DNA from: Chlorobiaceae bacterium
GTDB taxonomy: Bacteria > Bacteroidota > Ignavibacteria > UBA10030 > SZUA-254
Direction: 5' to 3'
DNA length: 64,000 nt
Assembly (NCBI GenBank): GCA_013824245.1
Contig: PNNN01000039.1
Coordinates: 75,250-139,249, forward strand
The notes under the pieces are model-generated. The model saw only the letters and a program-made list of their open reading frames with translations, was not told the DNA's origin and did not search any database. Made by a program: the position numbers and the translations under genes. Shown here in pieces: positions 19,452-64,000 of the stretch; the stretch's first letter is position 1; each line of letters opens with the position of its first letter.

Positions 19452-19509
19452 TTGCGATCTTTGCGTCTTGGCGTGAAATATTTTCTCGCAAAGGACGCTA
19501 AGATCGCAA
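19452..19509. repeat. Intergenic palindromic repeat inside the psr operon
   Basis: ttgcgatctttgcgtctt...aaggacgctaagatcgcaa; a related half copy is at ~35107-35130. Confidence 0.6.
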
Positions 19510-19542
19510 AGAGATTATCTAAAGTTTAATTAATATAAAAGG

Positions 19543-31899: not shown

Positions 31900-31943
31900 T
31901 TGAATTAACAAAAAACTTCGGCAATAAAAAATATGAGACTCAC

Positions 31944-42534: not shown

Positions 42535-42598
42535 CATTAATCTGTTTTGTGTGGGATGTTAAAATAAATTATATTGTAATCAACAAGTTCTTTAATAA

Positions 42599-42740
42599 TA
42601 TCTCCGAGTCTGTTTACCTAAATTCGATAATATGGTAACAGACCAGTAAGCCGGTTGCGGCTTCCCGTCCCGAAAACTTTCGGGACGGGACGGGTTCACT
42701 GAGAAATTAGTGTGCCTCCCCTGTTTGGAAAGGAGAGAAA
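42599..42740 (+). ncRNA. Moco (molybdenum-cofactor) riboswitch/RNA motif
   Basis: CTCCGAG..ACCTAA..GATAATATGGT..GCCGG..GGGTTCACTGAGAAATTAGTG-TGCCTCCC-CTGTTTGGAAAGGAG. The 3' end matches the recalled E. coli moaA leader GCCTCCCGTATTTGGAAAGG; P1 is ctcc/ggag; Mo-related neighbours. Confidence 0.8.
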
Positions 42741-42827
42741 TATATTTATTGATTGTATCATTGAATCATTGACTGATTGAACAAATGAATCAATGGCTCA
42801 ATGATCAAGTGAGTCAATAAGCCAATT

Positions 42828-48402: not shown

Positions 48403-49929
48403 GTGCATATCAATAATATCAAAATAATTAAGCTCCTTGATAAGCTATTCCCCTCTTTAACGGCAAAAATCGCTGTTGCGATGCTGTTTGTATTTCTTTT
48501 AGCGGGCGGGGGATTCGTATATTTTGCCCATTATACCGGTTTTAAAATGCTCGAGAGAAGTTCACAATCTCAAGCCCATGGTGTAGCCGAGTTCAGCAAA
48601 GCTATACTTGAGCATATTATGTTGAATGGGGAAAATCGGCAACTACAATCAGCATTGAACAGAATTGTTTCTTCGCGGCATGCAACCGATATTCTTATTC
48701 TTCGGGAGGATGGTGAAATAGCGATGCGTGTCAGTTCGGGGGTTACATCGGAAAAATTACCACTCGAAAAATTTCGAGAACTTCCCGAATACCCGGGCGA
48801 GAAATTCTTATTCATCAACGAGAATGGATCGACATATCAATACATCATAACACCCATAAAGAAGAGGACAGATTGTTATCAATGCCATTCTGAGCCATTG
48901 GCGACCCAAGGTTTTCTTGGTGTAAAGATTTCTATGGATGATATCCGAGGTGTTGCACTACAGCATCGAACAACTAATATCATTATGACGATCATTACAT
49001 TCGTGGGACTTGGTGCGATGCTTTTTATAGCTCTTCTAATTGTAGTTTTACGGCCTATAAAAAAATTACGTTACCAGATCGGTGAAGTCGATCAACAAAT
49101 CGATAGATATGAAAAAGGAGAACGCGTACAGTTCGATAAATTGTTTATTTCAGACAGGGAAGATGAGGTAACAAGCGTAATGCGTGCATTCAACCGATTG
49201 ATACATCGGTTGAACGATGCAAACGAAAAAATTCGCGACCTTCACCAAATACAAATGGAACATGCAGATCGATTAGCGACAACCGGAGAAATGGCGGCGG
49301 GTATTGCGCATGAAATAAAAAATCCGATTACCGGCGTACTCGGAGCCCTTCATGTTTTCGATGGTGAAATGGAAGAAAGTGACGAACGGAAAGAAATTAT
49401 TGCTGAAATGATAGCTCAACTTGAACGGGTTAATTATGCGATTAACGATCTGTTGAGTTATGCGAGACCGGTTAATCCTGAATTTACCGAAACAGATATA
49501 GCTGAAATCGTGAGAAGAACAATTGGACTGTTGTCTCCTCAGAGCAAACAGCTAAACGCTGATATTCGAACGAATCTGACAGAAAATAAAATTTTAATAA
49601 ATGCCGATAAAAAACAAATCCAACAAATATTATGGAACATAACATTAAATGCACTCCAGGCGTTGGATGGTAAGGGAGTTGTCAATGTTCTTGTTGAGGA
49701 AGATGATGTAAGAGTTAAAATTCAAGTTAAAGATACCGGCAGAGGAATTCCAGACGAACATTTAAACTGCATTTTTCAACCATTCTTTACAACCAAGCAT
49801 AAAGGTACAGGTCTTGGTATGACGATCACGAAAAGAATAATTGAACAACATGGTGGAACAATTTCAATAGAAAGCCGTGTGAATGCGGGTACCACAGTAA
49901 TTATAATACTTCCAAAGAAACAAAACTAA
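48403..49929 (+). CDS. Sensor histidine kinase with periplasmic c-type heme (CYQCH), HAMP, HisKA and HATPase
   Basis: Two TM segments flanking a domain with CYQCH; AHEIKNP H-box; NALQA; DTGRGI; PFFTTK; GTGLG. Confidence 0.9.
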   Translation: MHINNIKIIKLLDKLFPSLTAKIAVAMLFVFLLAGGGFVYFAHYTGFKMLERSSQSQAHGVAEFSKAILEHIMLNGENRQLQSALNRIVSSRHATDILILREDGEIAMRVSSGVTSEKLPLEKFRELPEYPGEKFLFINENGSTYQYIITPIKKRTDCYQCHSEPLATQGFLGVKISMDDIRGVALQHRTTNIIMTIITFVGLGAMLFIALLIVVLRPIKKLRYQIGEVDQQIDRYEKGERVQFDKLFISDREDEVTSVMRAFNRLIHRLNDANEKIRDLHQIQMEHADRLATTGEMAAGIAHEIKNPITGVLGALHVFDGEMEESDERKEIIAEMIAQLERVNYAINDLLSYARPVNPEFTETDIAEIVRRTIGLLSPQSKQLNADIRTNLTENKILINADKKQIQQILWNITLNALQALDGKGVVNVLVEEDDVRVKIQVKDTGRGIPDEHLNCIFQPFFTTKHKGTGLGMTITKRIIEQHGGTISIESRVNAGTTVIIILPKKQN

Positions 49930-49939: not shown

Positions 49940-51307
49940 ATGTATTGTAAAAAAATATTGATTGTTGACGACGAACGTTTAATTCGATGGTCAGTGAAAC
50001 AAGAATTAATTAAGAGCGGATTCGAAGTTGTCGAAGCAGATTCGGTTAAATCTGCTCGTCAGGCAATTGTTGATGATGATCCCGACATAATGATTTTAGA
50101 TCAGATGTTACCCGATGGCACAGGAATAGATCTATTAACCGAGATACAGAACACCAATAGGATAATGCCGGTGATCATGTTGACGGCAGTTGATAAGTCG
50201 CATACAGCCGTTAAAGCTTTGAAACTTGGGGCTTTTGATTATGTAACAAAACCGGTAAATATTGAAGAGTTAATAATTATTATCGAGAGGTGTTGCGAAG
50301 CTACACGTTTGAAACGTCAGGTTGCTCAATTGATGAAAGATCAAGAAAAAACGGGTGGATTTTCCGGTTTACTCGGATCCTCTGCGCCAATGAAGAATGT
50401 TGGGGAACATATTAATAAAATTTCTCAGAGTAACTGCACAACCGTTCTGATTACCGGTGAGAGCGGAACAGGAAAAGAACTTGCAGCAAAAGCGATTCAT
50501 TTCCTCAGCGACAGGCGCGATAAACTTTTTTTACCTGTAAATTTTTCAGCTCTCACCGAGACCATTGTTGAAAGCGAGCTATTCGGACACGAAAGAGGCG
50601 CCTTCACAGATGCGAGGCAGCAGAAAAAAGGGATATTTGAACTGGCTGACAGCGGAACGATCTTACTTGATGAGATAGGTAATATATCTCCAAAAGTTCA
50701 AGTTAGATTGCTAAGAGTGTTGGAGCAAAAGATATTTCAGAGAGTTGGCGGGACTCAGGATATAAGCGTTGATGTCCGTATAATCGCCGCAACAAATCAG
50801 CCGCTTGAGCAGCTTGTGAAGGAAGGTAAATTTCGCTCCGATTTATATTACCGGTTAAATGTAGCGACTATTCAAATGCCACCTCTGCGTGACCGCGGTG
50901 ATGATATAATAACGCTTGCTGAATTTTTCATTCATGAATTCAACATTGCTTTTCATAAAAACTTTAAAGGCATTACCGAGGAAACAAAACAAATATTTTT
51001 AAGATATGATTGGCCCGGCAATGTACGTGAGTTAAGAAATGTTGTTGAACGTGCTGTGTTGATGGATGACGGCGAATATATATTCTCTCATTCCGTTGAA
51101 TTAGGACACATCCATAAATTGGGACACGAAAAACCAGAACTTGCGTTCGAGCTTGGTTCCTTGGGGCAATCATTAGACGATATAGAAAAACAGGTTTTAA
51201 CAAAAGCGCTGGAAAAAACAAACAAGAACCAATCTCAAGCTGCAAAGATTCTCAAGATCAGCCGAGACACTCTACGATACAGAATGAAGAAGCATGACCT
51301 GCTCTGA
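49940..51307 (+). CDS. NtrC-family sigma54-dependent response regulator
   Basis: Receiver (VDDE, LDQMLPDG); GESGTGKEL; ESELFGHERGAFTDA; WPGNVRELRN; Fis-type HTH. Confidence 0.95.
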   Translation: MYCKKILIVDDERLIRWSVKQELIKSGFEVVEADSVKSARQAIVDDDPDIMILDQMLPDGTGIDLLTEIQNTNRIMPVIMLTAVDKSHTAVKALKLGAFDYVTKPVNIEELIIIIERCCEATRLKRQVAQLMKDQEKTGGFSGLLGSSAPMKNVGEHINKISQSNCTTVLITGESGTGKELAAKAIHFLSDRRDKLFLPVNFSALTETIVESELFGHERGAFTDARQQKKGIFELADSGTILLDEIGNISPKVQVRLLRVLEQKIFQRVGGTQDISVDVRIIAATNQPLEQLVKEGKFRSDLYYRLNVATIQMPPLRDRGDDIITLAEFFIHEFNIAFHKNFKGITEETKQIFLRYDWPGNVRELRNVVERAVLMDDGEYIFSHSVELGHIHKLGHEKPELAFELGSLGQSLDDIEKQVLTKALEKTNKNQSQAAKILKISRDTLRYRMKKHDLL

Positions 51308-51452: not shown

Positions 51453-51860
51453 ATGAATCTCAAAGAAGTAATGACCAAAAAACAAAGTTCACTGATACAG
51501 GTTTTAATCGTCGAAGATGAAGCTCTTATCGGATGGTCTTTGTCTCGTATCTTACAGAAAGCTGGATTTGCAGTTACTGTTGTTAATACTGGAGAGAAAG
51601 CAATAGAAAAATTTTGTGCCTCACATTTTGATATTGTACTTACTGATTACAAACTGCCTAAAATTGACGGTTATGTAGTTGCATCGAAAATTAAAGCAAA
51701 TTCCCCTCTAGTTCCGGTAATCCTCATGAGTGCTTACGATAATTATCCGGCTGGTAATAACATTCTACGATCTTCAATCGATCAATTCATAGAAAAACCT
51801 TTTACTTTATCTGAAATTACAAATGTACTACGTGCGTTCACTGTGAACCTTAAAAAGTGA
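51453..51860 (+). CDS. Single-domain (CheY-like) response regulator
   Basis: LIVEDE; LTDYKLP..DG; LMSAY; EKPF. Confidence 0.9.
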   Translation: MNLKEVMTKKQSSLIQVLIVEDEALIGWSLSRILQKAGFAVTVVNTGEKAIEKFCASHFDIVLTDYKLPKIDGYVVASKIKANSPLVPVILMSAYDNYPAGNNILRSSIDQFIEKPFTLSEITNVLRAFTVNLKK

Positions 51861-52025: not shown

Positions 52026-52041
52026 TGGCATTAAACATGCA
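52026..52041 (+). promoter_or_regulatory. sigma54 promoter for the multiheme cytochrome operon
   Basis: TGGCAT-TAAAC-ATGCA with GG and GC at canonical spacing, about 35 bp before ATG 52075. Confidence 0.65.
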
Positions 52042-52074
52042 CAAATAATTAAGGCGCTCTATATAATTATACAA

Positions 52075-53298
52075 ATGATATCTAAATATCTCACAATATC
52101 AATTTTATGCGTTCTCGGTGTTGTCTGTTTTTTAGGCGATACACCGCGATCTTCTTTGACGATTTTGGCTCCAGTTTATCCCGATTCGCTTGCTTATGAT
52201 CAGGGTCAACTATTTTTAATCACTTGTTCCAAAGAACAAACAACCGGTTTAATGATATCCACTCAATGGGCTGTTGAGAAGTTGATCGATATAGGCAGTA
52301 AGGCAAACAAAGATAATTTTGCCAAAGAAGTTTTTAAATTATTTCCAGCTAAGTCAACTCTTGAATTAGTCTCTACTTCTTTTCTGTTTTACAATGGATT
52401 CTCAAAAGCGGATTCCATTAGTTTCCCTTACATCGATACTATAACTGTTCGGTTTTTCTGGCAATTACCTCAGTTTGCCGAAATCATTCGTCAGGTACAA
52501 AATATCAATGCATCCCATGTTTTGCTTCAGATGCGAGGTTGGAAAGATACCGTTTATACTTCAACTCATCCCGATCCTATTAATCCCGATCAGGTATTAT
52601 ATCGCGCGTCAGTACAATTGTTGCCCGGTGCAAACAGGATATATTTTGCGAGCAATGGGATGAAAAATGAGGCAGAAGAATTTTTTGTTAACTTCGTGAC
52701 CAAAGCACGTAAGAGCGAATCTTACGATGTACAATTCCATGGTTCTCCCCTTGCTGTATCTTGTGCAAAATGTCATAAGGAATTGCCGAGCGAAACAAAT
52801 GCTGATGGTGAACGCGATAAATGCGGATTGTGTCATAACGAAATTGCAGGCGGTTTAATGAAACATGGTCCCGCGGCAGAACCGAAAGAATGTTCCACAT
52901 GTCATGAACGTTCTACAGAAAAAAATATTGAAATTGTTCCAAAAGGTGTTCCGGGTGTTTGTTTCGATTGCCATACCGAGAAGAAAGATGAAGTTGAGAC
53001 TTCGGCAGTAAAACACAAAGTTGCACACGATTGTGTAATTTGCCACTCACCGCACGCAACCGATCAGCCGAAATTTTTGAAGAATGATGTCTATCGTTTG
53101 TGCACCGGATGTCACCCGAACCATCTTATCAGTCATCCCGTCGATAAACACCCCATGCGATTTTCAAAATTAAATAAAGACTCAAACGAAGAAATTTCAT
53201 GTGTAAGTTGCCACAAGCCGCATGGTTCCGAAAACCGATCTTTATTAAAAGCCAGCGGTGGTTCAATGGCAGTGTGTATGCAATGTCATCAAAAGTGA
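52075..53298 (+). CDS. Octaheme cytochrome c (paired-CXXCH type) with a non-heme N-terminal domain
   Basis: Signal peptide; CAKCH, CGLCH, CSTCH, CFDCH, CVICH, CTGCH, CVSCH, CMQCH. Confidence 0.9.
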   Translation: MISKYLTISILCVLGVVCFLGDTPRSSLTILAPVYPDSLAYDQGQLFLITCSKEQTTGLMISTQWAVEKLIDIGSKANKDNFAKEVFKLFPAKSTLELVSTSFLFYNGFSKADSISFPYIDTITVRFFWQLPQFAEIIRQVQNINASHVLLQMRGWKDTVYTSTHPDPINPDQVLYRASVQLLPGANRIYFASNGMKNEAEEFFVNFVTKARKSESYDVQFHGSPLAVSCAKCHKELPSETNADGERDKCGLCHNEIAGGLMKHGPAAEPKECSTCHERSTEKNIEIVPKGVPGVCFDCHTEKKDEVETSAVKHKVAHDCVICHSPHATDQPKFLKNDVYRLCTGCHPNHLISHPVDKHPMRFSKLNKDSNEEISCVSCHKPHGSENRSLLKASGGSMAVCMQCHQK

Positions 53299-54212
53299 AT
53301 TCATATCGAATATTCTGTTTCTTGTTTGCGATGGCATCAATTGCCACCGCGCAAACAACATTCACCGATTTAGGAATTTCGGGCGGATCAAGTATCGTTA
53401 TGGCTCCTACAATTTCTGTTGCCCCCACTTCGCAGTTACGCGTTCATATGGGTCGAGTTGATTTTCTTCGCGGTGGCATGAAGGGATATAATGTATTCGG
53501 TCTGCAGGGTGGATTTTCAACCAACCTCGAAACATTCATTTCGATGTACAGCGAGCAAACCGGCTCAATTAATTCAAATGTATCATATGGAATTGGCGGC
53601 AAGCTTCTTTTGCCGTTCCGTGTTCCAGCGATTGGGAATCTCGCACTTTGGGGCGAAACGATCTCATCTACATTTTCATCCGAGAATGGAATGTTGCCAC
53701 AGAATATCACGCGGTTTTACATTATTGGGGGTAGATCTATTGGAAACTTTAACCCAATAATAATCGCCGGAGCAATGAATATTGACCATAAGTATTTACC
53801 GATAGCCGCTGTTGGAGGAACATTTCCTCTGAGCAGTGAAATAAAAATAGGCGGCGAAGGCATTTACAATTATTTCGGGATGAGAGAAAAACAAGGTATG
53901 CTGACCGGGATGATGAGAATTTTATCTAACATCAGTGTTCAGGTTAGCGGTGGATACATTCATTCCCAGCCGATGTCATCATGGATTTTTTCTGCCGGAC
54001 TTTCACTGGCAACAGCCGACTTGAATTTGTCTCCAAAGCCACAGGCAGCGCCAAAGGTTATTGTTCCGTCTTTTGAAGAGATGGAAAAAATGTCGATGGA
54101 GGAAAAAGGTATTGGACAAACTGTTCCACCTGTGCCGCCTGAGCAGGAAGAGAAAAAGCCGGAAACCCCGGAAGATAAGAAAGATGAAAAACAAAATGAT
54201 CCGCATAAATAA
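53295..54212 (+). CDS. Putative outer-membrane beta-barrel (YjbH-like) with Pro/charged tail
   Basis: GTG overlapping the upstream stop gives the signal peptide MNSYRIFCFLFAMASIATA; GISGGSSIVMAPT; alternating amphipathic strands; PPVPPEQEEKK tail. Confidence 0.55.
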   Translation: MNSYRIFCFLFAMASIATAQTTFTDLGISGGSSIVMAPTISVAPTSQLRVHMGRVDFLRGGMKGYNVFGLQGGFSTNLETFISMYSEQTGSINSNVSYGIGGKLLLPFRVPAIGNLALWGETISSTFSSENGMLPQNITRFYIIGGRSIGNFNPIIIAGAMNIDHKYLPIAAVGGTFPLSSEIKIGGEGIYNYFGMREKQGMLTGMMRILSNISVQVSGGYIHSQPMSSWIFSAGLSLATADLNLSPKPQAAPKVIVPSFEEMEKMSMEEKGIGQTVPPVPPEQEEKKPETPEDKKDEKQNDPHK

Positions 54213-54230
54213 GATAAAGATAATTTGATT

Positions 54231-55247
54231 ATGAAAGATATATTGAAAAAAATATTGTTAGTTGTGATAATAATTGGCGCTAATTCATTTTATGGGTGTG
54301 GTTCAAAAAATATTCAGAAGGAAGATATTGCATGGCCCAGTCCGCCCGATGAACCTCGCATAAGATATATAAAGACATATGAAAGCGAAGATGATTTTCT
54401 TTCAAAGTTTGGAATTTTTGCACAGAGCTTAACCGGAAAAGGCGGAACTATCTCGCTTAGTCGTCCTTTCGATGTTTGTAGTGACGGTAAAGGACGAATT
54501 TTTGTAACCGATGTTGCGCAAGGAATTATTGTTTTCGATGAAAACCAGAAGAAAGTATTAGCTCTCGGAGAAAATATTCCTGTTCCGCTCGGCAACCCGC
54601 TCGGAATTGCTTATGGAGATAATAAATTATTCGTCGGCATAGCGGAAATAGGGCAGGTTGTTGCTATGACTCCCGAAGGAAAATTCCTCAATCTTATCGG
54701 AAAATCTGGTTCTTTCCCTAATCCGGTTGATGTTGATTATGATAAATTAAACAAACGAGTGGTGGTTGTCGATAATAAAAACCATCAGGTATATATTTAT
54801 TCTGAAGGTGGAGATTCACTGCTGACGATAGGTAAGCGCGGCGATGCTGATGCTGAATTCAATTATCCTCAAAGCGTGGCAGTTGATACTGCCGGGAATA
54901 TTTATGTGGTAGATGCGTTCAACTTCCGCATACAGGAATTCGACTCGCATGGTAAGTTTATACGAAAATACGGACAGCAGGGAAATGTCTTCGGTACATT
55001 TGCACGCCCGAAGGGTATTGCTCTTGATATGTATCAGAATATTTATGTTGTCGATGCGATGCATCAAAATTTTCAAATATTCAATCAAAATTTCGAACTG
55101 CTTCTTTTTGTAGGCAAATTCTCGAATAAAGATAATTGGGGGTTTCAAAATCCAATTGGAATCTCCGTTGATCAAAACAATACAATTTATGTTGCAGACC
55201 AGTTGAACCAGAGGATACAGGTGTTTCAACTGTTAAAACCAGATTAA
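54231..55247 (+). CDS. NHL-repeat six-bladed beta-propeller lipoprotein (copy 1)
   Basis: FYGC lipobox; WPSPPDEPRI; FNYPQSVAVD, FARPKGIALD, FQNPIGISVD, NQRIQVF repeats. Confidence 0.9.
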   Translation: MKDILKKILLVVIIIGANSFYGCGSKNIQKEDIAWPSPPDEPRIRYIKTYESEDDFLSKFGIFAQSLTGKGGTISLSRPFDVCSDGKGRIFVTDVAQGIIVFDENQKKVLALGENIPVPLGNPLGIAYGDNKLFVGIAEIGQVVAMTPEGKFLNLIGKSGSFPNPVDVDYDKLNKRVVVVDNKNHQVYIYSEGGDSLLTIGKRGDADAEFNYPQSVAVDTAGNIYVVDAFNFRIQEFDSHGKFIRKYGQQGNVFGTFARPKGIALDMYQNIYVVDAMHQNFQIFNQNFELLLFVGKFSNKDNWGFQNPIGISVDQNNTIYVADQLNQRIQVFQLLKPD

Positions 55248-55353
55248 TTCTAAAAAATAAAAAATCCACTTCCTCAATGCCTCATGAGGGAAAGGATTAT
55301 GTTCAATCACGAGGCAGTAAAAAACAAAATCATTAATCTAAGGAGTAATTAGT

Positions 55354-56013
55354 ATGAAACAACTTTTAGTTGTAGCAGTGATGATACTTGTTGCCGCATC
55401 TTTCGTTATGGGACAAACGTTAGGAATGGCAACCAGCAAGCACAACTTTGCATTATCTTCAACGAACACCATCAAAGGCGCTTCGGAGAAGGTTTGCGGA
55501 TATTGCCATACACCACACGTTCCGGCAACCGGAATTAAAGCACCGCTATGGTCACGTGCGAAATTAGTATCGACCGGTTACGGTGTATATTCAAGTCCAA
55601 CAATGGATGCTACGCTAACCGCACTTGATGCAGGTCAGGATAATGTTAGCTCTATGTGTATGAGCTGCCACGATGGCAGCGCATTATTTGCTTCAGCGGC
55701 TTATGTGAAACGTCCACACGCTGGATCAGTCGTGTGGGATCCATACATAGCGACAACAGTTGGTGATGCAGCAAACCTGCATGCCGGAACAAAGTATGGT
55801 ACAGGTTTATCACACACACATCCGGTGAATTTCGCCTATAATGCAGCATTAGTAACTGCCGACGGTGGATTACAAGGGACGCCGTTGAACAATTTACCGC
55901 TATACAACGATATGATGCAATGCGGAAGCTGCCATAATCCGCATCTCACGAGCAAAATGACTCGTGTTACAAGCGATGGCGGTTTACTCTGTATTTCATG
56001 TCATGTTAAGTAA
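55354..56013 (+). CDS. OmcE-like tetraheme cytochrome c (copy 1)
   Basis: SKHN..CGYCHTPH..PLWSR..YSSPTM..CMSCHDG..HPVNF..CGSCHNPH..LCISCHVK; strong RBS AAGGAG. Confidence 0.8.
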   Translation: MKQLLVVAVMILVAASFVMGQTLGMATSKHNFALSSTNTIKGASEKVCGYCHTPHVPATGIKAPLWSRAKLVSTGYGVYSSPTMDATLTALDAGQDNVSSMCMSCHDGSALFASAAYVKRPHAGSVVWDPYIATTVGDAANLHAGTKYGTGLSHTHPVNFAYNAALVTADGGLQGTPLNNLPLYNDMMQCGSCHNPHLTSKMTRVTSDGGLLCISCHVK

Positions 56014-56031
56014 GTAACGATTAATATTGTG

Positions 56032-56059
56032 CGACTCATCCCGATAACGGGATGGGTCG
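56032..56059 (+). terminator. Strong hairpin after the cytochrome gene (stabiliser or partial terminator)
   Basis: cgactcatcccg-ataa-cgggatgggtcg; no U-tract. Confidence 0.45.
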
Positions 56060-56084
56060 TACAAATAAATTGGCAAGGGGAAAA

Positions 56085-57758
56085 GTGAAGCGAGTATTCA
56101 TTATAGCGCTTTTATTAGTGCTATCTATTTATAGTGGCGTCAGTCAGCTTTCGTCGATCAACGGTGAGCTGCGTTATCAGCATCAGTATCAGGATGCTTA
56201 TAGCGGTGGCGCTTTTTATAAACTAATCCGGAAAAATCCGCAGTTTATTTTCGGTACAATGGGTTATATTTTATCCCCCATGATTTTTTCCTTCGATGTC
56301 CGCACCAACATCAACTTAAACTATAACAATTCATCTTTCGCCGGCGTCAACAGTTCTTTCAAGCAAACCATTATAGGGTTTTATGACCTGAATGTTAATG
56401 CTCTGCAACGATTGCCGGTTCGTGTCTCGTTTTCTGCCCGTGATCAGCAGATCAAATCATCTTCGCAATTCAGTAAATTCAATGTCGGTTTCGATGATTA
56501 CAGGCAGCAGCAACAGCGTATCGAATTTTCGACGATGAATTTGAAGTTTTTACCAGCTACCTCTTTTGCATATCAACGTATCCGCAATTGGTCCGATATA
56601 TCATTGAACCGCTTTAATCAGCTTATGCAAGAACTTACACTGAATATGTCTCAATCCACACAAGATGCATCGGTGAGTTTATCGGGATCACTCAGCGAGA
56701 ATTATGAGAGTTTTACAAACAACAGGTTAAGGTACCTACGTTTTCAGATGAGCGGTAACAAAGAATTTTCAGCCAATCACCGCGCAGATATATCTTCCGA
56801 ATATTATAAATTCGAAAATACATCGATGATAAATGCCAATGGCATTTACAACGGCACGCTATTCGAGAAATTCCGATTCAACACCAATATTTTAGCTCGA
56901 AATGCGAACTCTCAATCGGCATCATCAACAACACTCGGATTAGGACAGACTATCCAGTTTCTCCAGAATGAAAATTTTAATTATTCGGTTTCTTTTAATA
57001 ATCAATCCACATACGACATCTACATTCAGGAGAATAACAGTTACAAACAACGTACCGATAATTTGGCGGGATCGGGAACGATTCAACATATGAGGTCTAT
57101 CAGCGATATCACATTTTCTAACGGAATATCTTTCGGCTATGCGAAGCAAGATTCCCGTTTAGGGCAGAGGTCGTACAACGGCGGGCTGACAAACAGTTTT
57201 CAAACCACTTCCGGCGGTTATCAAATAAATGCAAATCAAATGTTTAGCATGACAAGAATTAAAGGATATCTCGGGCGAGATGAAATCAACAACTTAGTGA
57301 ACATGATGATTGGTAAAACTTTGCCGTACCAAATCAATTCTCAGACAGGTATCGAGTTTCGGAATGAACGCCGGTCGAACACGAATGAGCTTTTTTATAA
57401 ATATCAAACAATCCAATTGCGACAACATTTAAATACGTCTATCTATATATATAGTCCGTTTACCGTTTCTGTTGAAGGAACAATGAATTGGATATCAAAC
57501 GGCGTTAAAGGGCATATGTACGGAATAACGGCAAACATAAACAGCGGTCGTTTCTTTTTACAAAATTTATCTATGAATTATCGTCTAAGTCGGACGTACG
57601 ATATATATTATAGAAGACCGTATATGGAGCAGACAATTGAGTTTACATATAACTGGCGCGCTCTTGCATTCCAGCTAAGGTTACAGGAATTCAGGTTCAT
57701 CGATACGCGTCATGATGTCTGGTTCAGTGTAACAAGACCGTTTAACATTGGATTATGA
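56085..57758 (+). CDS. Large putative outer-membrane beta-barrel (porin of a porin-cytochrome complex?)
   Basis: Signal peptide from GTG 56085; S/N/Q/T-rich with alternating aromatic/hydrophobic strands throughout; no heme motif. Confidence 0.6.
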   Translation: MKRVFIIALLLVLSIYSGVSQLSSINGELRYQHQYQDAYSGGAFYKLIRKNPQFIFGTMGYILSPMIFSFDVRTNINLNYNNSSFAGVNSSFKQTIIGFYDLNVNALQRLPVRVSFSARDQQIKSSSQFSKFNVGFDDYRQQQQRIEFSTMNLKFLPATSFAYQRIRNWSDISLNRFNQLMQELTLNMSQSTQDASVSLSGSLSENYESFTNNRLRYLRFQMSGNKEFSANHRADISSEYYKFENTSMINANGIYNGTLFEKFRFNTNILARNANSQSASSTTLGLGQTIQFLQNENFNYSVSFNNQSTYDIYIQENNSYKQRTDNLAGSGTIQHMRSISDITFSNGISFGYAKQDSRLGQRSYNGGLTNSFQTTSGGYQINANQMFSMTRIKGYLGRDEINNLVNMMIGKTLPYQINSQTGIEFRNERRSNTNELFYKYQTIQLRQHLNTSIYIYSPFTVSVEGTMNWISNGVKGHMYGITANINSGRFFLQNLSMNYRLSRTYDIYYRRPYMEQTIEFTYNWRALAFQLRLQEFRFIDTRHDVWFSVTRPFNIGL

Positions 57759-57767
57759 TGTTACCTC

Positions 57768-57945
57768 GAAAGACTCCAGATATCAGACATCAGATTAAAA
57801 ACCTCTCTTCGCAATCCCCCTTGCCAGAGAGAAGGGATTGGAGTTGTCCGCTTATGGCGGACTCTCCAATTCCGTATGTTTTTGGGGGATTTGGCGCTGT
57901 GATATTTAACGGAAATATTATAGTCAGTGATCTGGGGAATTGCAA
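57768..57945. repeat. Repeat-derived spacer inside the cytochrome operon
   Basis: cagatat/cagacat periodic units; aatcccccttg..aagggatt; ttggagttgtccgcttatggcggactctccaa; gggaattgcaatattccc. Confidence 0.5.
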
Positions 57946-58000
57946 TATTCCCATAAATGATATAAGTTTTATAGGTACCAAAATTGGCATTAATAAAATC

Positions 58001-59008
58001 ATGAAGTTATTCATAATTACATTTTTATCGTTTTACATGCTGTTATTATTTGGTTGCGGAACGTCGAAGGAAGCAATTCCCGATTACGTTTGGCCCCCAC
58101 CGCCCGAAAAAGCCCGGATTAAATTTGTGAACATTATTAAGGGGAAAGATTATTTCGAATCATCAGGAATAGATAAGGTGTTGAGTGTTCTTGCGGGCGA
58201 GCATACAGGTACAACTTTTGAGCGTCCTTATGCGGTAGCTGTTGATGCAACAGGAAATATTTATGTATCCGACACAAGCTTGAAGAAAGTTTTTGTGTTC
58301 GATGTTACTCAAAAACAAATTCGCACGATCGGCGATAAAGGAAGTGCAAAACTTCAATCTCCCATCGGGATTGCAATTGCATCCTCAAATAAAATATTCA
58401 TAGCCGATTCAAAAGTAAGACGTGTTTTTGCGTACGACTTAGAAGGTAATTTACTTTTCGGAATTGGTGAAGAAAACGAATTTGCATCGCCAACCGGTTT
58501 GGCTTTCGATTCATCCTCAAGCCGACTTTATGTGGTTGATACAAACAATCATCTGGTTAGAGTGTACAATGATGAAGGAAAATTTTTATTCACGTTCGGC
58601 AAACGCGGTGGCGACGACGGTGAGTTTAATTTTCCAACAAACATCACTGTACATAAAGGAAAAGTGTATGTTGTAGATACTATTAACGGACGAGTTCAGA
58701 TTTTCGATCTGGAAGGGAAATTTGTTTCGAAATTCGGGCAACTTGGAAATACGCCAGGATATTTCTCGCGTCCAAAGGGTATCGCGCTCGATTCATTCGG
58801 ACATATCTATATAGTAGATGCTGCGTTCGATAATTTTCAGTTGTTCAATGAAAAAGGGGAGGCGCTGATGTTCATCGGACAAGCCGGCGCAGGTATTGCA
58901 GAATTTCAATTGCCCGCGGGGATTTTCATTGATAAAGATAATTATATTTATGTTGTCGACCAGCTCAACGCGCGCGTACAGGTTTTTCAATTCATCGGTA
59001 AAGAATAA
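58001..59008 (+). CDS. NHL-repeat beta-propeller lipoprotein (copy 2)
   Basis: LLFGC lipobox from ATG 58001; WPPPPEKARI; FNFPTNI, FSRPKGIALD, FQLPAGIFID, NARVQVF. Confidence 0.9.
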   Translation: MKLFIITFLSFYMLLLFGCGTSKEAIPDYVWPPPPEKARIKFVNIIKGKDYFESSGIDKVLSVLAGEHTGTTFERPYAVAVDATGNIYVSDTSLKKVFVFDVTQKQIRTIGDKGSAKLQSPIGIAIASSNKIFIADSKVRRVFAYDLEGNLLFGIGEENEFASPTGLAFDSSSSRLYVVDTNNHLVRVYNDEGKFLFTFGKRGGDDGEFNFPTNITVHKGKVYVVDTINGRVQIFDLEGKFVSKFGQLGNTPGYFSRPKGIALDSFGHIYIVDAAFDNFQLFNEKGEALMFIGQAGAGIAEFQLPAGIFIDKDNYIYVVDQLNARVQVFQFIGKE

Positions 59009-59043
59009 TAAAATAAATTAATTTCATCATTAAGGAGTTACAC

Positions 59044-59730
59044 ATGAAGTACTTACTAATCGTCATTACACTGATTTTGATTGTTGCGGTGATAGGATCT
59101 GCACAGATCAGAAATAGTAAACACGATTTATCATTCGGTTCAACAACAACCGGTCCGAAAACCACAACCAGCACTTATACCGAGGTTTGCGTTTTCTGTC
59201 ATACACCACACTCTACACAGAGCACAAGTTTACTTTGGAACCGAACTGCTTCTACTGCATCGTACGCAGTTTATTCCAGTCCGACCATGGAACAAACAGT
59301 TCCGCAGCCGGGTGCAGTTTCTAAAAACTGTCTTAGTTGCCACGATGGTACCATAACATTGGCAAGCGTTGTTAATAATCCGGGCAGTAGTGGTGGAATA
59401 GCTCCGGTTTTCACCGCTCCGGGTAAAATTGATACCACAGTATTCACAGGAATTGGAACAAACCTCACAAACGATCATCCTATCGGTTTTGTTTACAACA
59501 CAAGTCGTTCAACTGACGCGGATTTACGAACCGAAACAGTTGCCGGTATAAAAGTAACCGTCAATGCTACTTCTCCGACCAGATCATTAACACTTTACGG
59601 TACAACCGCTGCCAGTGCAACACTCGAGTGCGGAACCTGTCATGATCCTCACGGAGTAACCGGTGTTCCAACATTCTTAAGAGTATCGAATAGCAACAGC
59701 GAACTCTGCTTTACGTGCCATGTTAAGTAG
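59044..59730 (+). CDS. OmcE-like tetraheme cytochrome c (copy 2; closest to OmcE as recalled)
   Basis: IRNSKHDLSFGS..VCVFCHTPH..LLWNR..YSSPTM..CLSCHDG..GTNLTNDHPIGF..TLECGTCHDPH..FLRVSNSNSELCFTCHVK; RBS AAGGAG. Confidence 0.85.
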   Translation: MKYLLIVITLILIVAVIGSAQIRNSKHDLSFGSTTTGPKTTTSTYTEVCVFCHTPHSTQSTSLLWNRTASTASYAVYSSPTMEQTVPQPGAVSKNCLSCHDGTITLASVVNNPGSSGGIAPVFTAPGKIDTTVFTGIGTNLTNDHPIGFVYNTSRSTDADLRTETVAGIKVTVNATSPTRSLTLYGTTAASATLECGTCHDPHGVTGVPTFLRVSNSNSELCFTCHVK

Positions 59731-59785
59731 CAAAGAAACTTTAAACACAGCTTTGTTCCGATACAAGAAAATATTATAATTAAGC

Positions 59786-60781
59786 ATGATAAAATTTTGC
59801 CGAATTATATTATTACTTAGCACTATTTTCTTTATGGAACAAGCGGCGGCTCAAAGTTCTTCCACCGAACTTGTTTGGCCCCCCCCGCCGCAAAAAGCGC
59901 GAATACAACATCTTCGTACAATTTCAAATTTGAACGAAGTAGCATCTGAGCAGGGATTTTTTTCTCGCGTGATGAATTTCTTGTTTGGTGGAACAGAATC
60001 CCGGCATGGATTCGTTCAACCGGTTGGTATCGCTGTTTCTCAATCGGGCGTTATCTACATTGCCGACCCGGGTGCAAATTGCGTTCATATTCTGAATTTA
60101 GATGAAAAAGAATATTCTGTCGTTTCAGAAACAAAAGCCGGAAAACTAAAATCACCTGTTGGTTTGGCTTCAGCTTCGAATGGTTATCTATACATCTCTG
60201 ATTCGGAACGGAAAGAAATTTTGGTTTTAGACGAAGACCTTTCATTTCAATTCGTAATCCGGAATAATTTTGTGAGACCAACAGGTATTCAGATTATAAA
60301 TGGAAAGTTATTCATTGTTGATACGGGTCAGAATAAAATTTTTATTTTCGATCTTAACGGAAAGTTTATTTCGGAATTCGGAAGACGCGGAAGTGGAGAC
60401 GGAGAGTTTAATTATCCGGTACAATTATGCGCCCGCAATTCAATTTATATTGTCGATGCACTGAACTTTCGAATTCAAATGTGTGATGTATCCGGTAAGT
60501 TCGCCGGTCAATTTGGAGGAATAGGTAACAGCGCGGGGAGCTTTGCCAATCCCAAATCGATTGCACTCGATTCCGAAGGTCACGTTTACGTAACCGATGC
60601 GTTGATGGATAATTTTCAAATATTCGATAGTCAGGGACAGCTATTACTCGTTGTTGGAAGCAAAGGAAACGGAGATGGTGAATTTATGAGTCCAAGCGGT
60701 ATAGCAATAGACGCAAATGATACAATTTATATTGTTGACTCACTTAATAAGAGATTACAAATATTCAGGTATATGAAGTGA
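59786..60781 (+). CDS. NHL-repeat beta-propeller (copy 3; Sec signal, no lipobox)
   Basis: WPPPPQKARI; FNYPVQL, FANPKSIALD, FMSPSGIAID, NKRLQIF. Confidence 0.9.
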   Translation: MIKFCRIILLLSTIFFMEQAAAQSSSTELVWPPPPQKARIQHLRTISNLNEVASEQGFFSRVMNFLFGGTESRHGFVQPVGIAVSQSGVIYIADPGANCVHILNLDEKEYSVVSETKAGKLKSPVGLASASNGYLYISDSERKEILVLDEDLSFQFVIRNNFVRPTGIQIINGKLFIVDTGQNKIFIFDLNGKFISEFGRRGSGDGEFNYPVQLCARNSIYIVDALNFRIQMCDVSGKFAGQFGGIGNSAGSFANPKSIALDSEGHVYVTDALMDNFQIFDSQGQLLLVVGSKGNGDGEFMSPSGIAIDANDTIYIVDSLNKRLQIFRYMK

Positions 60782-62670
60782 AAATAAAATTGTTAAAAAT
60801 ATTATTAATTGTGTCCGTATCGCTTATAACGTTCGGTCAGGTATTTTCCCAAACGAGCATCGTAAGCTCGAAGCATAATTTAAGCACAACCGGAACAGGT
60901 ACTATTAAGGCAACAAGCGAAACTCAAGTTTGCGTTTTTTGCCATACCCCACACAGTAAGCAAGTTACGTCTCAATTGTGGAATCATCAACCAACCACAG
61001 CTACATATACATTATACAGCAGTGATTATCTTACATCGAAAAGTTATCCTGCTTCAACACAGCCGGGTACAAAATCAAAACTGTGTTTAGCATGTCACGA
61101 TGGTACAATCGCAATCGGTGCCGTTTATAATACCACAGGATCCAGTTCTGCCGGAACCATTACAATGGCAAGCGGTATAACGACATTACCATCGGGTCAA
61201 TCGACAAATGTAGGTACATCTTTAGTGAACGATCATCCGGTGGGATTTGCATACGATGCTACAAAAGATCCGGAATTGGTATCAAGAACATGGCCCTGGA
61301 ATAGTGCAATTAAATTAGATCCCGATGCTTCAAATGGCAAAGTCGAATGCACGTCGTGTCATGAACCGCATCATAATACAAACGGGAAGTTCTTACAAAT
61401 CTCTAACACGAATGCGGCACTTTGCACATTTTGTCATAATAAAACTAATTGGGCGGCTTCGATTCATAAAACTTCTACTCAAAGTTATACACCATCCGGC
61501 TCCACAACCACTACAGTTGGCGAATGGTCTTGCCGCAATTGTCATCGATCTCACAATGGACAAGGAGTCCCTTATCTGTTAAATCTCGTAGAAGAAAATA
61601 CCTGTTACCAATCAAGCTGTCACGGTTCAACAACTCCCGGAATTAATACGAAAGATATTCAAACACAGGCAAATAAAACTTATAAACATCCAACAAATAC
61701 AGTGAGCGGCAAGCACAAGAATCCTGATAACTCGACAAGTTTAAATGTCCCGAATCGTCACGCCGAATGCTATGATTGCCATAACAGCCATCAGGCGAAA
61801 GATGGATTGCATACGTTGAAAAGCAATGCTGTTTCAAATGTATTAACAGGTGTTTGGGGTGTTACACCCGGTACAGCTACAATATGGACTCAACCAACAA
61901 CGTTCACCATAATAAATCCGGTTACAAAGGAGAATCAGATTTGTTTTAAATGCCATTCATATAATGCTTTTGGATTTGCGTTAAACGGCGTTACAACCAT
62001 TGTTGGACCATCCGGGGTGAATATCACCGATCAAGCGATGGAGTTTAACACGGCAAATAAATCAGCACATCCGGTTGTAGTATCAACGAACAACCAAACA
62101 GGATCAACGGCACCAAAGGCGCTCACTACAACGCAAATGAGTACGACTTGGAATAGTGTTGGAACACAGACAATGTATTGCGGCGATTGCCACGGTAACG
62201 ATCAAGCTACTTCTGCAACTGTTCCTCAGGGTCCGCATGGGTCGAACGCGAAATTCATATTAACAGGTACGGCAAAATATTGGCCCCTTAACGCTTCCGG
62301 AAATCTCTGGTCGCTTAATGACTTAAGGAACAATCTTAATAATTGGTCTACGAATCTTTTTTGTGTAAATTGTCATCCGATTTATAGCGGTGGAAGTTTT
62401 AAAAACAACACCCATTCCAGAAATCAACATCAGGGTGTCGCCGTCAAGTGCGTTGCCTGTCATGTAACAGTACCGCATGGAGCGAAGCGATCGCGCCTGA
62501 TTGGTTATCGAACTGATGTTTATCCGTATAATTACAATGGCGCCGGACAGTTTGAAAAATTAGTGATCAGTGGGTTTCGGAAAGCATCGAGTCCGAATAA
62601 CTACATCAAAAGTGATTGCACTTTCACTAGCGGTTGTCATGGTACACAAAGCGGTACATATGAACCATAA
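60778..62670 (+). CDS. Multiheme cytochrome c: N-terminal OmcE-like tetraheme module plus ~8 further hemes
   Basis: 10 CXXCH (CVFCH, CLACH, CTSCH, CTFCH, CRNCH, CYDCH, CFKCH, CGDCH, CVNCH, CVACH) plus CYQSSCH (CX4CH) and CTFTSGCH (CX5CH); T/S/N-rich. Confidence 0.88.
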   Translation: MKIKLLKILLIVSVSLITFGQVFSQTSIVSSKHNLSTTGTGTIKATSETQVCVFCHTPHSKQVTSQLWNHQPTTATYTLYSSDYLTSKSYPASTQPGTKSKLCLACHDGTIAIGAVYNTTGSSSAGTITMASGITTLPSGQSTNVGTSLVNDHPVGFAYDATKDPELVSRTWPWNSAIKLDPDASNGKVECTSCHEPHHNTNGKFLQISNTNAALCTFCHNKTNWAASIHKTSTQSYTPSGSTTTTVGEWSCRNCHRSHNGQGVPYLLNLVEENTCYQSSCHGSTTPGINTKDIQTQANKTYKHPTNTVSGKHKNPDNSTSLNVPNRHAECYDCHNSHQAKDGLHTLKSNAVSNVLTGVWGVTPGTATIWTQPTTFTIINPVTKENQICFKCHSYNAFGFALNGVTTIVGPSGVNITDQAMEFNTANKSAHPVVVSTNNQTGSTAPKALTTTQMSTTWNSVGTQTMYCGDCHGNDQATSATVPQGPHGSNAKFILTGTAKYWPLNASGNLWSLNDLRNNLNNWSTNLFCVNCHPIYSGGSFKNNTHSRNQHQGVAVKCVACHVTVPHGAKRSRLIGYRTDVYPYNYNGAGQFEKLVISGFRKASSPNNYIKSDCTFTSGCHGTQSGTYEP

Positions 62671-62764
62671 TGAAATTTACATCGAACAGTCATTATACAG
62701 TTAATAAAGTAAAGTATATTTTCTTAATGCCCCGCAAAATAAAATTAAAAACAAGGTACATGTT

Positions 62765-64000
62765 ATGAAGCGAAAAATATTAATTCTTTTTTCCTTAACA
62801 ATATTATTCCTACTCTCCTTAGTTACGATGGGATACGGTCAGGAAAATGTGAAGCAGTCATGTATAACAGCTAAGTGTCATGTGAATTTTGGGAAAGCAA
62901 AATTTGTCCATGGACCGGTTGCGGTAGGTGAATGTATCTCGTGTCATCAGCTTCTCCCGAAGGAAGATCATAAATTCCAGCCGATAAAAAATGTAGAAGA
63001 ACAATGCAATAAGTGCCACGAACCGATGGCGAAGAAAGGGACTGTGCATGCGCCGGTTGCGAAGGGCGAATGTGCTAAATGCCACGATTCTCATCAGTCG
63101 GACAGGCAATTTCAGTTAAAGAAATCTTCTACGAGCGACTTGTGCTTTTCATGCCATCCAAAAAATCTGATAACTAAAAAGTTTACACATGGTCCGGCAG
63201 CAGATGGCGAATGTTTATCGTGCCACCTGCCGCACATGAGCGAGAAACCGCAATTATTAACAAAAGCATCTAACGATCTGTGCTTTCAATGCCATACCGA
63301 TTTTCAGGAATCTTTCGCAGCGGCAAAAAATATTCATAAACCGGCAGGTGAAAATTGCGCGCAATGCCATAATCCACACAGCGCCGATGCAAGATTTTTA
63401 CTTGCAAGCAATACACCCGATCAATGTTATACATGCCATGCTGCTATTCAGACATCGGCAACGAAATCTACAGTGAAGCATGTTGCGCTCGATGAAGAGA
63501 AAAAATGTTTAGCTTGTCATTCCCCACATACCGCAAATCATATCAAACAATTAACAGAAGAACCGATGGCACTTTGTTTAAAATGCCACGACAAATCGCT
63601 GGTTGAAAAGGGGAATAAGCTTTCGGATATGAAAACACTGTTCGATAAAAATATTAATTGGCACGGACCGATACGCGAACGCGATTGCTCCGGTTGTCAT
63701 GAAGTTCATGGCTCACAAAATTTCCGGCTATTAACCCAAACATATCCGCCGGAATTTTATACACCATATGCTTCTGAAAAATATGAACTATGTTTTAACT
63801 GCCATCAAAATACGCTTGCGCAGGATCCGACAACCATGACTTTAACTGGTTTTCGAGATGGAAGTCGGAATCTTCATTATCTTCATGTCAATAAAAAAGT
63901 TAAGGGAAGAACTTGTCGTGCATGCCATGAAACCCATGCGAGTAATAACGACAGGCATGTCCGCGAGTTGGTTCCATTCGGACAATGGATGTTGCCGGTA
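62765..64000 (+). CDS. High-heme paired-CXXCH cytochrome c, truncated by the window edge; absent from the ORF track
   Basis: Manual translation from MKRKILILFSLTILFLL: CITAKCH (CX4CH) plus 13 CXXCH (CISCH, CNKCH, CAKCH, CFSCH, CLSCH, CFQCH, CAQCH, CYTCH, CLACH, CLKCH, CSGCH, CFNCH, CRACH); GFRDGSRNLHYLHV..KGRTCRACH. Confidence 0.9.
   Translation, partial: MKRKILILFSLTILFLLSLVTMGYGQENVKQSCITAKCHVNFGKAKFVHGPVAVGECISCHQLLPKEDHKFQPIKNVEEQCNKCHEPMAKKGTVHAPVAKGECAKCHDSHQSDRQFQLKKSSTSDLCFSCHPKNLITKKFTHGPAADGECLSCHLPHMSEKPQLLTKASNDLCFQCHTDFQESFAAAKNIHKPAGENCAQCHNPHSADARFLLASNTPDQCYTCHAAIQTSATKSTVKHVALDEEKKCLACHSPHTANHIKQLTEEPMALCLKCHDKSLVEKGNKLSDMKTLFDKNINWHGPIRERDCSGCHEVHGSQNFRLLTQTYPPEFYTPYASEKYELCFNCHQNTLAQDPTTMTLTGFRDGSRNLHYLHVNKKVKGRTCRACHETHASNNDRHVRELVPFGQWMLPV

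Follow-up and report, generated by a model that had tools for sequence, protein, structure and literature searches.

The window analysed here, a 64,000-nucleotide stretch of contig PNNN01000039.1 (assembly GCA_013824245.1), carries between positions 52075 and 64000 ten co-directional plus-strand open reading frames (ORFs), named A to J, whose products all appear to be secreted proteins. We consider it fairly probable that this locus is a sigma54-controlled operon for a porin-anchored extracellular cytochrome system of the OmcE/Uet type in an Ignavibacteriales bacterium. This reading is based on the homology of its tetrahemes to the OmcE nanowire subunit, a gene content corresponding to the published cluster definition, the family link of its barrel, the MtrA-like rods, synteny in relatives, the conserved sigma54 footprint and a host group that is enriched on anodes.

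The cluster encodes five cytochromes with 8, 4, 4, 12 and at least 14 heme motifs (A, D, G, I and J), three NHL propellers (C, F and H), a predicted 28-strand barrel (E) and the small protein B (Table 1). By sequence inspection, all ten products start with a hydrophobic signal sequence. The E-F gap measures 242 nt with the start of F placed at 58001, while the other spacers range from -16 to 106 nt. Gene starts were adjusted using orthologues: that of B was corrected to 53283 (probable, from the orthologue alignment), that of F to 58001 (its orthologues are 333-335 aa long), and that of E probably lies about 11 codons 3' of 56052. An earlier reading of this DNA, made from the letters alone and called below the sequence-only reading, had listed five multiheme cytochromes with 8, 4, 4, about 12 and at least 14 motifs and three NHL propellers. 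The ORFs and motif counts agree with the former, and the Pfam NHL matches of C, F and H (E 2e-23 to 1e-29) bear out the latter.

D and G are homologues of the OmcE nanowire subunit

Since Pfam and NCBIfam hold no OmcE-specific model and returned only generic paired-CXXCH and c3/c7 matches for the window cytochromes, OmcE membership was tested against PDB sequences. The OmcE filament of Geobacter sulfurreducens was reportedly solved by Wang et al. in 2022 (PDB 7TFS). We take 9YUQ, a 218-aa multiheme cytochrome, to be the OmcE bundle of D. soudanensis WTL, its 16 chains fitting the structure of Petersen et al. When all PDB sequences were searched, 7TFS and 9YUQ were the sole significant matches of D, G and residues 20-222 of I, with 9YUQ ranking second for all three, and each was aligned end to end. 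D and G share 38-43% identity with the solved OmcEs (38-39% with each of them in the case of G), and the two solved OmcEs are 41% identical to one another (Petersen et al. 2025, bioRxiv 10.1101/2025.10.22.684050).

A five-way alignment of D, G, the head of I and both solved OmcEs contains the invariant elements K-H, CxxCH-TPH, LW, Y, CxxCHDG, HP, CxxCHxxH and LCxxCH. The invariant heme motifs are C49/C52/H53, C96/C99/H100, C196/C199/H200 and C222/C225/H226, and four further histidines are invariant (H27, H56, H145 and H203 in G numbering). Among 130 homologues of I, and likewise among 14 relatives of D, conservation of these heme and histidine columns is 99-100%. D and G have hydrophobic N-termini, their mature ends align with that of OmcE, and all three proteins have a common N-terminal I-x-x-[ST]-K-H motif. 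The motif order reported in the sequence-only reading ([S/T]KH-CxxCHTPH-...-LCxxCH) proved exact and was reproduced in the alignment with both solved OmcEs. The resemblance to OmcE that it had pointed out for D, G and the N-terminus of I was confirmed by the direct PDB comparison, which is significant over the full length with the eight heme-ligating histidines kept. Judged on these alignments, D and G can be regarded as established full-length homologues of the OmcE nanowire subunit, with all heme ligands conserved.

OmcE has four hemes and eight histidines, one heme being completed by a histidine of the neighbouring subunit; G contains exactly eight histidines for four hemes. By analogy, the N-terminal K-H histidine is a candidate inter-subunit heme donor in D and G, and both proteins may polymerise and be located at the cell surface. 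Counting histidines was also tried as a test for "stopper" subunits and was rejected because it does not discriminate: D has a ninth histidine (H154, kept in its five closest orthologues), and so does the OmcE of G. sulfurreducens. D groups with the tetrahemes of L037 and L057 in a distance tree that was built by neighbour joining from 115 OmcE-like domains and is crude, having no support values. L numbers denote loci of relatives, among them the 80 best of a scan with the peptide C[VG][FY]CHTPH, in which each GTDB species was represented by one genome. Another OmcE-like product, a 156-aa three-heme protein resembling OmcE without its first heme, is encoded downstream of the cluster in L081 (14489-14959, minus strand).

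The gene neighbourhood resembles both the OmcE and the uet cluster

Petersen et al. (bioRxiv 10.1101/2025.10.22.684050) consider an OmcE homologue nanowire-capable when a large beta-barrel and a beta-propeller lipoprotein are encoded next to it. Their minimal cluster consists of two multiheme cytochromes, two propeller lipoproteins, OmcE and the large barrel, and it was reported from five phyla, Bacteroidota not among them. The window has this gene content, with D and G as subunits, E as barrel, C and F (both with lipoboxes) and H as propellers, and A (8 hemes), I (12) and J (at least 14) as multiheme cytochromes. The neighbourhood of NHL lipoproteins and multiheme cytochromes that had been called OmcE-type from the letters alone hence matches the published definition. 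The likeness includes a tetraheme of equal length with four CxxCH motifs and four extra histidines, a neighbouring barrel, two NHL propellers and further multiheme cytochromes. The window differs from the OmcE cluster by its host (Bacteroidota/Ignavibacteriales, outside the five phyla), by its two tetraheme paralogues and three propellers, and by A, with its heme-free N-terminal domain, and B in place of a small 5-heme cytochrome. It also lacks the glycosylation gene island that follows the OmcE cluster, is probably under sigma54 and heme-sensor two-component control, contains a conserved intergenic RNA-like element, and encodes tetrahemes that lie in other branches of the tree.

The uetABCDEFGHIJ cluster of Ca. 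Tenderia electrophaga (Tenderiales) was proposed to mediate electron uptake from cathodes (bioRxiv 10.1101/2022.05.06.490989). It encodes the tetraheme UetA, the peptidyl-prolyl isomerase (PPIase) UetB, the barrel UetC with 28 predicted strands, the trihemes UetDEG, the cupredoxin UetF, the NHL proteins UetH/I and the extracellular undecaheme UetJ (same reference), and it is also present in some Gallionella (PMC10734462). Three loci from gammaproteobacterial metagenome-assembled genomes (MAGs), L038, L067 and L077, have the exact uetA-J order and stood in for the Tenderia proteins in our comparison. Their tetraheme is 35-38% identical to G, their last cytochrome is 31-34% identical to I, including the OmcE-like head, and their barrels are homologous to E. 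The likeness between the window and Uet is a four-part core made of the OmcE-like UetA, the roughly 600-aa barrel UetC, the NHL proteins UetH/I, and UetJ, which is homologous to I over about 530 residues. As in uet, ccsBA lies beside the cluster in the relative L083, where the interval between I and the J-like gene (16660-20331) is occupied by the system II cytochrome-maturation genes ccsB/ccsA together with a B12/radical-SAM gene.

In contrast to Uet, the ten window products contain no PPIase, triheme c7 or cupredoxin domain detectable with Pfam or NCBIfam, I has 12 conserved heme motifs instead of 11, the gene order is different, and the function proposed for Uet is to let aerobic autotrophs take up electrons. 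Without the PPIase, trihemes and cupredoxin, the window does not qualify as a uet cluster proper; what it shares is the core. The OmcE-like tetraheme and I-homologous last cytochrome of the three loci with exact uet order indicate, at the sequence level, that OmcE and Uet clusters share one four-part core, in which the UetA-type protein is an OmcE homologue and the UetJ-type protein has an OmcE-like head. In the literature that could be searched, no paper mentioned both UetA/UetJ and OmcE.

The locus was also compared with two other electron conduits. MtrA-like rods (J and A), a large barrel able to sheathe a rod and an extracellular multiheme partner are reminiscent of MtrCAB from Shewanella (6R2Q). 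However, E has no detectable sequence relation to MtrB and differs from it in strand number (28 predicted versus 26; TM 0.38), the window has no MtrC/OmcA-type decaheme (PF22113 matches are weak or below threshold), and its OmcE-type tetrahemes and NHL propellers have no Mtr counterpart. A and J match MtrA partially and score below the cut-off of the DmsE family. On all these counts the locus does not belong to the MtrCAB type. The OmcS nanowire of G. sulfurreducens shares with OmcE the principle of an insulated linear heme chain with inter-subunit histidine ligation, but OmcS is a hexaheme without sequence or fold similarity, and the window has nothing like it.

The barrel E, the protein B and the MtrA-like cytochromes A and J

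Neither E nor B matches any Pfam or NCBIfam model. An AlphaFold2 model of E, based on seven sequences, predicts a signal helix followed by 28 antiparallel beta-strands (mean pLDDT 64). Its Foldseek matches are exclusively large outer-membrane barrels (LptD, TonB-dependent transporters, ushers and MtrB), and because they are generic, with TM of 0.2-0.38, they support the barrel class of E and not a specific relative. The family link comes from profiles: the E profile aligned with the barrels of the uet-ordered loci over 498 columns (hhalign probability 99.1%, E 2e-18). An iterated hidden Markov model of E, a kind of profile that can drift and whose counts are to be read with this caveat, found a single member next to the OmcE-like gene in 39 of the 80 loci, including that of Desulfuromusa (E 7.5e-27). 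Two putative barrels had been announced in the sequence-only reading; E was upheld by its 28 predicted strands and the UetC-type profile match, while B, having no significant match, could not be established as one. An exhaustive search of 1.84 billion representatives placed only 51 clusters in the B family, and against the PDB the protein gave insignificant matches, to autotransporter barrels only. B is possibly a small outer-membrane barrel, which is a guess.

A consists of a heme-free N-terminal domain of about 210 aa followed by eight paired-CXXCH hemes, and its orthologues head the clusters of L037, L057, L058, L014, L081 and L083. J runs past the end of the window; its full-length orthologue in L081 is 445 aa long and has a fifteenth motif, CSPGCH. 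For both proteins the best PDB match is MtrA (6R2Q_A), with E 1e-8 for A and 1e-15 for J, and by sequence both are MtrA-like paired-CXXCH rods.

The dodecaheme cytochrome I has an OmcE-like head

In the window the third OmcE-like domain is the N-terminal part of I. Residues 20-222 of I match 7TFS with E 3e-29, and the I family profile does so with E 4e-47. The 12 heme motifs (10 CxxCH, C276-x4-CH and C614-x5-CH) are each 97-100% conserved among the 130 homologues. At least 97% conservation is also seen for 14 histidines outside the motifs; the N-terminal K-H (H33) is kept, and an invariant histidine, H230, lies ten residues past the heme-4 motif, where OmcE ends. I shares 31-35% identity with the undecahemes of the uet-ordered loci and the Desulfuromusa protein. 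The latter belongs to locus L048, which encodes an OmcE-headed 10-heme protein and a J-like 13-heme protein.

All 37 fused heads and the window I fall in one clade of 45 in the distance tree, which points to OmcE-headed large cytochromes being a single old paralogue lineage, inherited alongside the stand-alone tetrahemes. Larger cytochromes with OmcE-like parts are not entirely without precedent, as a survey of Desulfuromonadia groups "OmcE/OmcP". Compared with its L081 orthologue, I is 86% identical over its whole length and 94% in the C-terminal domain, indicating that the head is the less conserved part; surface exposure would be expected of such a head.

With H33 kept and 14 non-motif histidines for 12 hemes, I could donate a histidine to an OmcE-type neighbour and also close its own acceptor heme, for which H230 is a candidate ligand. 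We tentatively put forward, while holding it to be doubtful, that I and other UetJ-type proteins would be dedicated terminal subunits of OmcE-type nanowires, whose head docks by a His-heme handshake, whose acceptor heme is closed internally, and whose eight-heme tail wires to the barrel and rod or to a mineral. In the study of Petersen et al., the factor that starts, stops or tips filaments is described as unsolved and no such candidate was seen in OmcE operons (bioRxiv 10.1101/2025.10.22.684050).

Probable promoter, regulators and a structured element between E and F

The element TGGCATTAAACATGCA lies 34 nt 5' of the ATG of A and has the spacing of a sigma54-type -24/-12 promoter. This pattern is not enriched in the window (13 matches for 8 expected), and a match is not significant alone. 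The element is identical in L083 and L084; in the more divergent L081 its flanks have drifted, and TGGCA...TG, with the GG/TG cores, is kept at the equivalent position. In view of the cores conserved in these three relatives and of the gene for an NtrC-type activator just upstream, we accept TGGCATTAAACATGCA as a probable sigma54 promoter, in line with the sequence-only reading, which had placed such a promoter at the head of an operon-like run. The integrity of the operon and the synteny of the regulators hold in three relatives. A pattern scan, completed by eye, found no second sigma54 promoter with proper GG-N10-GC spacing ahead of F.

Upstream of the activator gene is that of a sensor histidine kinase, in which two hydrophobic, transmembrane segments (residues 15-43 and 191-222) bound a periplasmic domain of about 150 aa. 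This domain contains a CxxCH motif (C158-YQ-CH) that is kept in the L083 orthologue. The kinase is probably a heme-c redox sensor controlling the sigma54 activator.

The E-F gap contains a conserved structured element of 100 nt. The stem sequence of its first hairpin, CUCUC.GCAA...UUGC..GAGAG, is invariant. The second hairpin, of 18 bp, shows compensatory changes at 12 pairs among seven distinct sequences with 98.4% of cells paired, a level reached by none of 500 shuffles, and it is usually followed by the U-rich tail. No Rfam family matches the element. A covariance model built from five sequences independently recovered the copies of L037 and L057 (E 4e-22 and 9e-18). Copies are located in L081 (6794-6893), L083 (11716-11825), L086 (2202-2311), L089 (9035-9136, minus strand), L037 (8865-8964) and L057 (8835-8936). 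In every copy the element follows the barrel gene and is followed in turn by the NHL gene located ahead of an OmcE-type gene, and it was seen only in Bacteroidota-type clusters. A repeat or mobile element was considered and rejected, the window having a single copy and the position in the operon being always the same. The 21-nt core has 15 metagenome matches, most of which share the core alone and are probably unrelated. Judged by its predicted structure, the element may act as an attenuator or terminator that separates transcription of the conduit half of the operon from that of its filament half; alternatively, the invariant palindrome could be a protein-binding site.

The cluster type is widespread and the host belongs to the Ignavibacteriales

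The closest relatives of the locus support the Ignavibacteria-like host assumed in the sequence-only reading. Syntenic orthologues with 85-88% identity are found in an "Ignavibacteriales bacterium" MAG, and the orthologue of E, at 85% identity, is in the MAG of this name GCA_016214905.1. There, synteny covers the molybdenum cofactor (Moco) genes, the kinase, activator and receiver genes and A to I, after which come ccsBA, a radical-SAM gene and a J-like cytochrome gene. A second MAG, GCA_964581995.1, has the A-J order unchanged, with I at 86% identity, and the other named close matches come from Bacteroidota, Ignavibacteriae or Ignavibacteria MAGs. The host assignment is based on these MAG orthologues; in the scan of GTDB species genomes the best match was 58% identical and was not the window's own genome. 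Known Ignavibacteria are organoheterotrophs for which reduction of Fe(III), arsenic and nitrate has been reported; they are enriched on anodes, and only Mtr/Omb-type conduits have been noted in them.

The peptide scan found OmcE-like relatives in at least 584 species, and the OmcE-like family comprises 4490 clusters. In the set of the 80 best, the OmcE-like gene has NHL genes as neighbours at 74 loci and a barrel of the E family at 39 (more if UetC-type barrels are included), and 37 loci encode an OmcE-headed large cytochrome. Tetraheme, NHL protein, barrel and OmcE-headed cytochrome, the last with 10-12 hemes, occur together in at least 21 of the 80, from about nine phylum-level groups: Acidobacteriota, Gammaproteobacteria, Binatia, Desulfobacterota, Bacteroidota, Gemmatimonadota, Planctomycetota, Calditrichota and Schekmanbacteria. 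Bacteroidota contribute Ignavibacteriaceae, Melioribacteraceae and a "Chlorobiaceae" MAG. Judged by these numbers and by the sharing of the Uet core, the architecture is much commoner than the sequence-only reading had assumed. By its sequences, the window locus is the Ignavibacteriales version of a known, widespread OmcE/Uet-type system and not a rarity.

Proposed mechanism and alternatives

In the mechanism we propose, the periplasmic heme-c sensor kinase and its NtrC-type partner would turn on A-J via sigma54 when the redox state demands an external acceptor. Electrons from the quinol pool would flow to the periplasmic rods A and/or J, one of which would sit inside the 28-strand barrel E, like MtrA in MtrB. 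Outside the cell, G and/or D would polymerise head to tail into an insulated heme wire, the histidine of the N-terminal K-H completing a heme of the next subunit. I would join one end of the wire by its OmcE-like head, and its eight-heme tail would link to the barrel conduit, making it an anchor, or to the mineral, making it a tip. The NHL propellers would serve at the outer membrane as scaffolds for assembly or stability, and the hairpin/terminator-like element between E and F would set how much of the conduit half (A-E) is made relative to the filament half (F-J). In this scheme we infer where the proteins are located, that the tetrahemes polymerise, how rods and barrel pair, what I does and which way electrons flow.

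Several observations weigh against such a system. The window contains no inner-membrane quinol oxidase; the sequence-only reading had announced a full periplasm-to-surface conduit with nanowire subunits, and while the OmcE homologues, barrel and rods are present, "full" was an overstatement. The confidence of the E model is moderate and the TM of its matches is low, and the AlphaFold2 model of I (49 sequences, mean pLDDT 51) is unusable; proteins rich in hemes and coil are hard to model when cofactors are left out. The distance tree places D and G outside the small clade that contains the solved OmcEs. Whether cytochrome filaments are physiologically needed for extracellular electron transfer is disputed even for Geobacter: a 2024 mBio paper (PMC11077965) reportedly found no physiological evidence for them as conduits. 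OmcE filaments have been solved from G. sulfurreducens and D. soudanensis only, the bundles of G. metallireducens being consistent with the same subunit (bioRxiv 10.1101/2025.10.22.684050), and the homologous Uet cluster was proposed to carry electrons inward (bioRxiv 10.1101/2022.05.06.490989).

Some of these points also favour a compact, non-polymeric porin-cytochrome conduit of the Mtr/Uet type, in which A or J would fill E, I would play the role of MtrC, D and G would be monomeric carriers at the surface or in the periplasm, and no micrometre-long filament would be formed. In the Uet model, the extracellular cytochromes UetJ and UetA sit on UetC and no polymer is required, A and J resemble MtrA, the tetrahemes branch apart from the solved OmcEs, filaments have been demonstrated for two or three OmcE homologues only, and universal polymerisation is unlikely in a family as large as the OmcE-like one. 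We nevertheless hold this conduit to be rather unlikely, because all residues of the OmcE heme chain are invariant, the N-terminal K-H has no obvious partner heme inside a monomer, the eight histidines for four hemes in G correspond to the open-ended arithmetic of a polymerising subunit, and the cluster has the composition described for nanowire-capable homologues. The same machinery might also run in reverse, as has been proposed for Uet, with cathodes, partner cells or Fe(II) minerals supplying the electrons. Multiheme conduits such as Mto/Mtr are reversible, and the four-part core also occurs in the uet genes of Ca. Tenderia electrophaga, an electroautotroph, and in loci of Gallionella, Sulfuritalea and other iron oxidisers. 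On the other hand, the known Ignavibacteria are anode-enriched organoheterotrophs with reported reduction of Fe(III), arsenic and nitrate, the window encodes reductases of anaerobic metabolism, a PhsA-like one and one of the octaheme tetrathionate-reductase family, with no genes for carbon fixation or an uptake-linked oxidase, and the closest functional precedents, the OmcEs of Geobacter and Desulfuromonas, serve outward transfer; inward flow is in our view unlikely.

Very improbable is a periplasmic multi-cytochrome module for redox or detoxification reactions, unrelated to extracellular electron transfer, with NHL proteins as enzymes and the barrel as an ordinary solute porin. NHL/SGL propellers do include lactonases and arylesterases, to which weak Pfam matches were seen. 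Against it stand the genetic linkage of tetrahemes, barrels, NHL proteins and OmcE-headed cytochromes in about nine groups at the level of phyla, the fact that the solved homologues are extracellular filaments, and the 28-strand barrel, which is far larger than a solute porin and resembles protein-housing barrels.

Table 1. Features of the locus in window coordinates
Feature	Coordinates	Strand	Remarks
Sensor histidine kinase	48403..49929	+	Pfam HisKA and HATPase_c; syntenic in L083
NtrC-type sigma54-dependent response regulator (enhancer-binding protein)	49940..51307	+	Pfam Response_reg, Sigma54_activat (E 9e-65), HTH_8; syntenic in L081 and L083
Stand-alone receiver-domain protein	51453..51860	+	Pfam Response_reg (E 4e-25); syntenic in L081, L083 and L084
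Probable sigma54-type -24/-12 promoter element TGGCATTAAACATGCA	52026..52041	+	GG-N10-GC spacing; conserved in relatives
A, secreted octaheme cytochrome	52075..53298	+	8 CxxCH; Paired_CXXCH_1 E 3e-24
B, secreted protein of about 309 aa, Pro/Glu/Lys-rich tail	53283..54212	+	Narrow uncharacterised family
C, NHL-repeat beta-propeller lipoprotein	54225..55247	+	Pfam NHL E 2e-23; lipobox FYGC
D, OmcE-like tetraheme, paralogue just before the barrel gene	55354..56013	+	219 aa; 7TFS E 4e-20, 9YUQ E 7e-18, full length
E, predicted large outer-membrane beta-barrel, UetC/OmcE-cluster barrel family	56052..57758	+	568 aa; directly 3' of D
Conserved structured intergenic element, 100 nt	57797..57896	+	Hairpin, 18-bp covarying hairpin, U-rich tail
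F, NHL-repeat beta-propeller lipoprotein	58001..59008	+	Pfam NHL E 1e-29; lipobox LFGC
G, OmcE-like tetraheme, nearest of the three to solved OmcE	59044..59730	+	228 aa; 7TFS E 4e-37, 9YUQ E 6e-32, full length
H, NHL-repeat beta-propeller, signal peptide, no lipobox	59786..60781	+	Pfam NHL E 6e-28
I, dodecaheme, UetJ-type	60778..62670	+	630 aa; OmcE-like four-heme head (about 25-222) fused to an eight-heme C-terminal domain of about 400 aa
J, paired-CXXCH cytochrome, runs past the window end	62765..64000	+	13 CxxCH and one Cx4CH, 14 in the window; Paired_CXXCH_1 E 2e-67

Other features of the window

A molybdenum-cofactor riboswitch (Rfam RF01055, 68.5 bits, E 2e-14) is located at 42590-42751 on the plus strand, upstream of the ORF 42915-44633. 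This ORF is followed by a gene for a TonB-dependent receptor, with MobA-like and Moco genes nearby. The plus-strand gene at 31896-33299, which follows that of an ApbC/Mrp-like Fe-S carrier, encodes an octaheme cytochrome assigned to the tetrathionate-reductase family (TIGR04315, 610 bits). The genes at 15314-19444 (plus strand), for a MerR/HspR-like regulator, a PhsA-like molybdopterin oxidoreductase, an NrfC-like Fe-S subunit and an NrfD-like membrane subunit, look like those of a thiosulfate/polysulfide-type quinol-linked reductase. Finally, a type I restriction-modification system with an HsdR-like helicase, an HsdM methylase and an HsdS specificity subunit occupies 9104-14260 (plus strand).

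Significance

The locus extends the OmcE cluster to the Ignavibacteriales, which are recurrent on anodes and in iron-rich habitats, and its value lies more in the shared OmcE/Uet core, the dodecaheme I and the distinct regulation than in the host. The common core ties a system of iron reducers to one of iron oxidisers and cathode-associated bacteria. The heme-sensor kinase, the sigma54 control and the structured intergenic element are unlike the regulation described for Geobacter. Cytochrome nanowires have been solved from few organisms, and the literature openly admits a gap concerning their export, anchoring, start and end, for which the OmcE-headed 10-12-heme protein offers a testable candidate as filament anchor or cap. 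If the terminal-subunit reading of I is true, the anchor or tip protein missed by Petersen et al. would already be encoded in OmcE-type operons, and Uet conduits and OmcE nanowires would be one ancient, phylum-spanning, porin-anchored cytochrome-filament system. If filaments do form here, electron transfer by nanowires would count as a general trait among Bacteroidota living in sediments and the subsurface.

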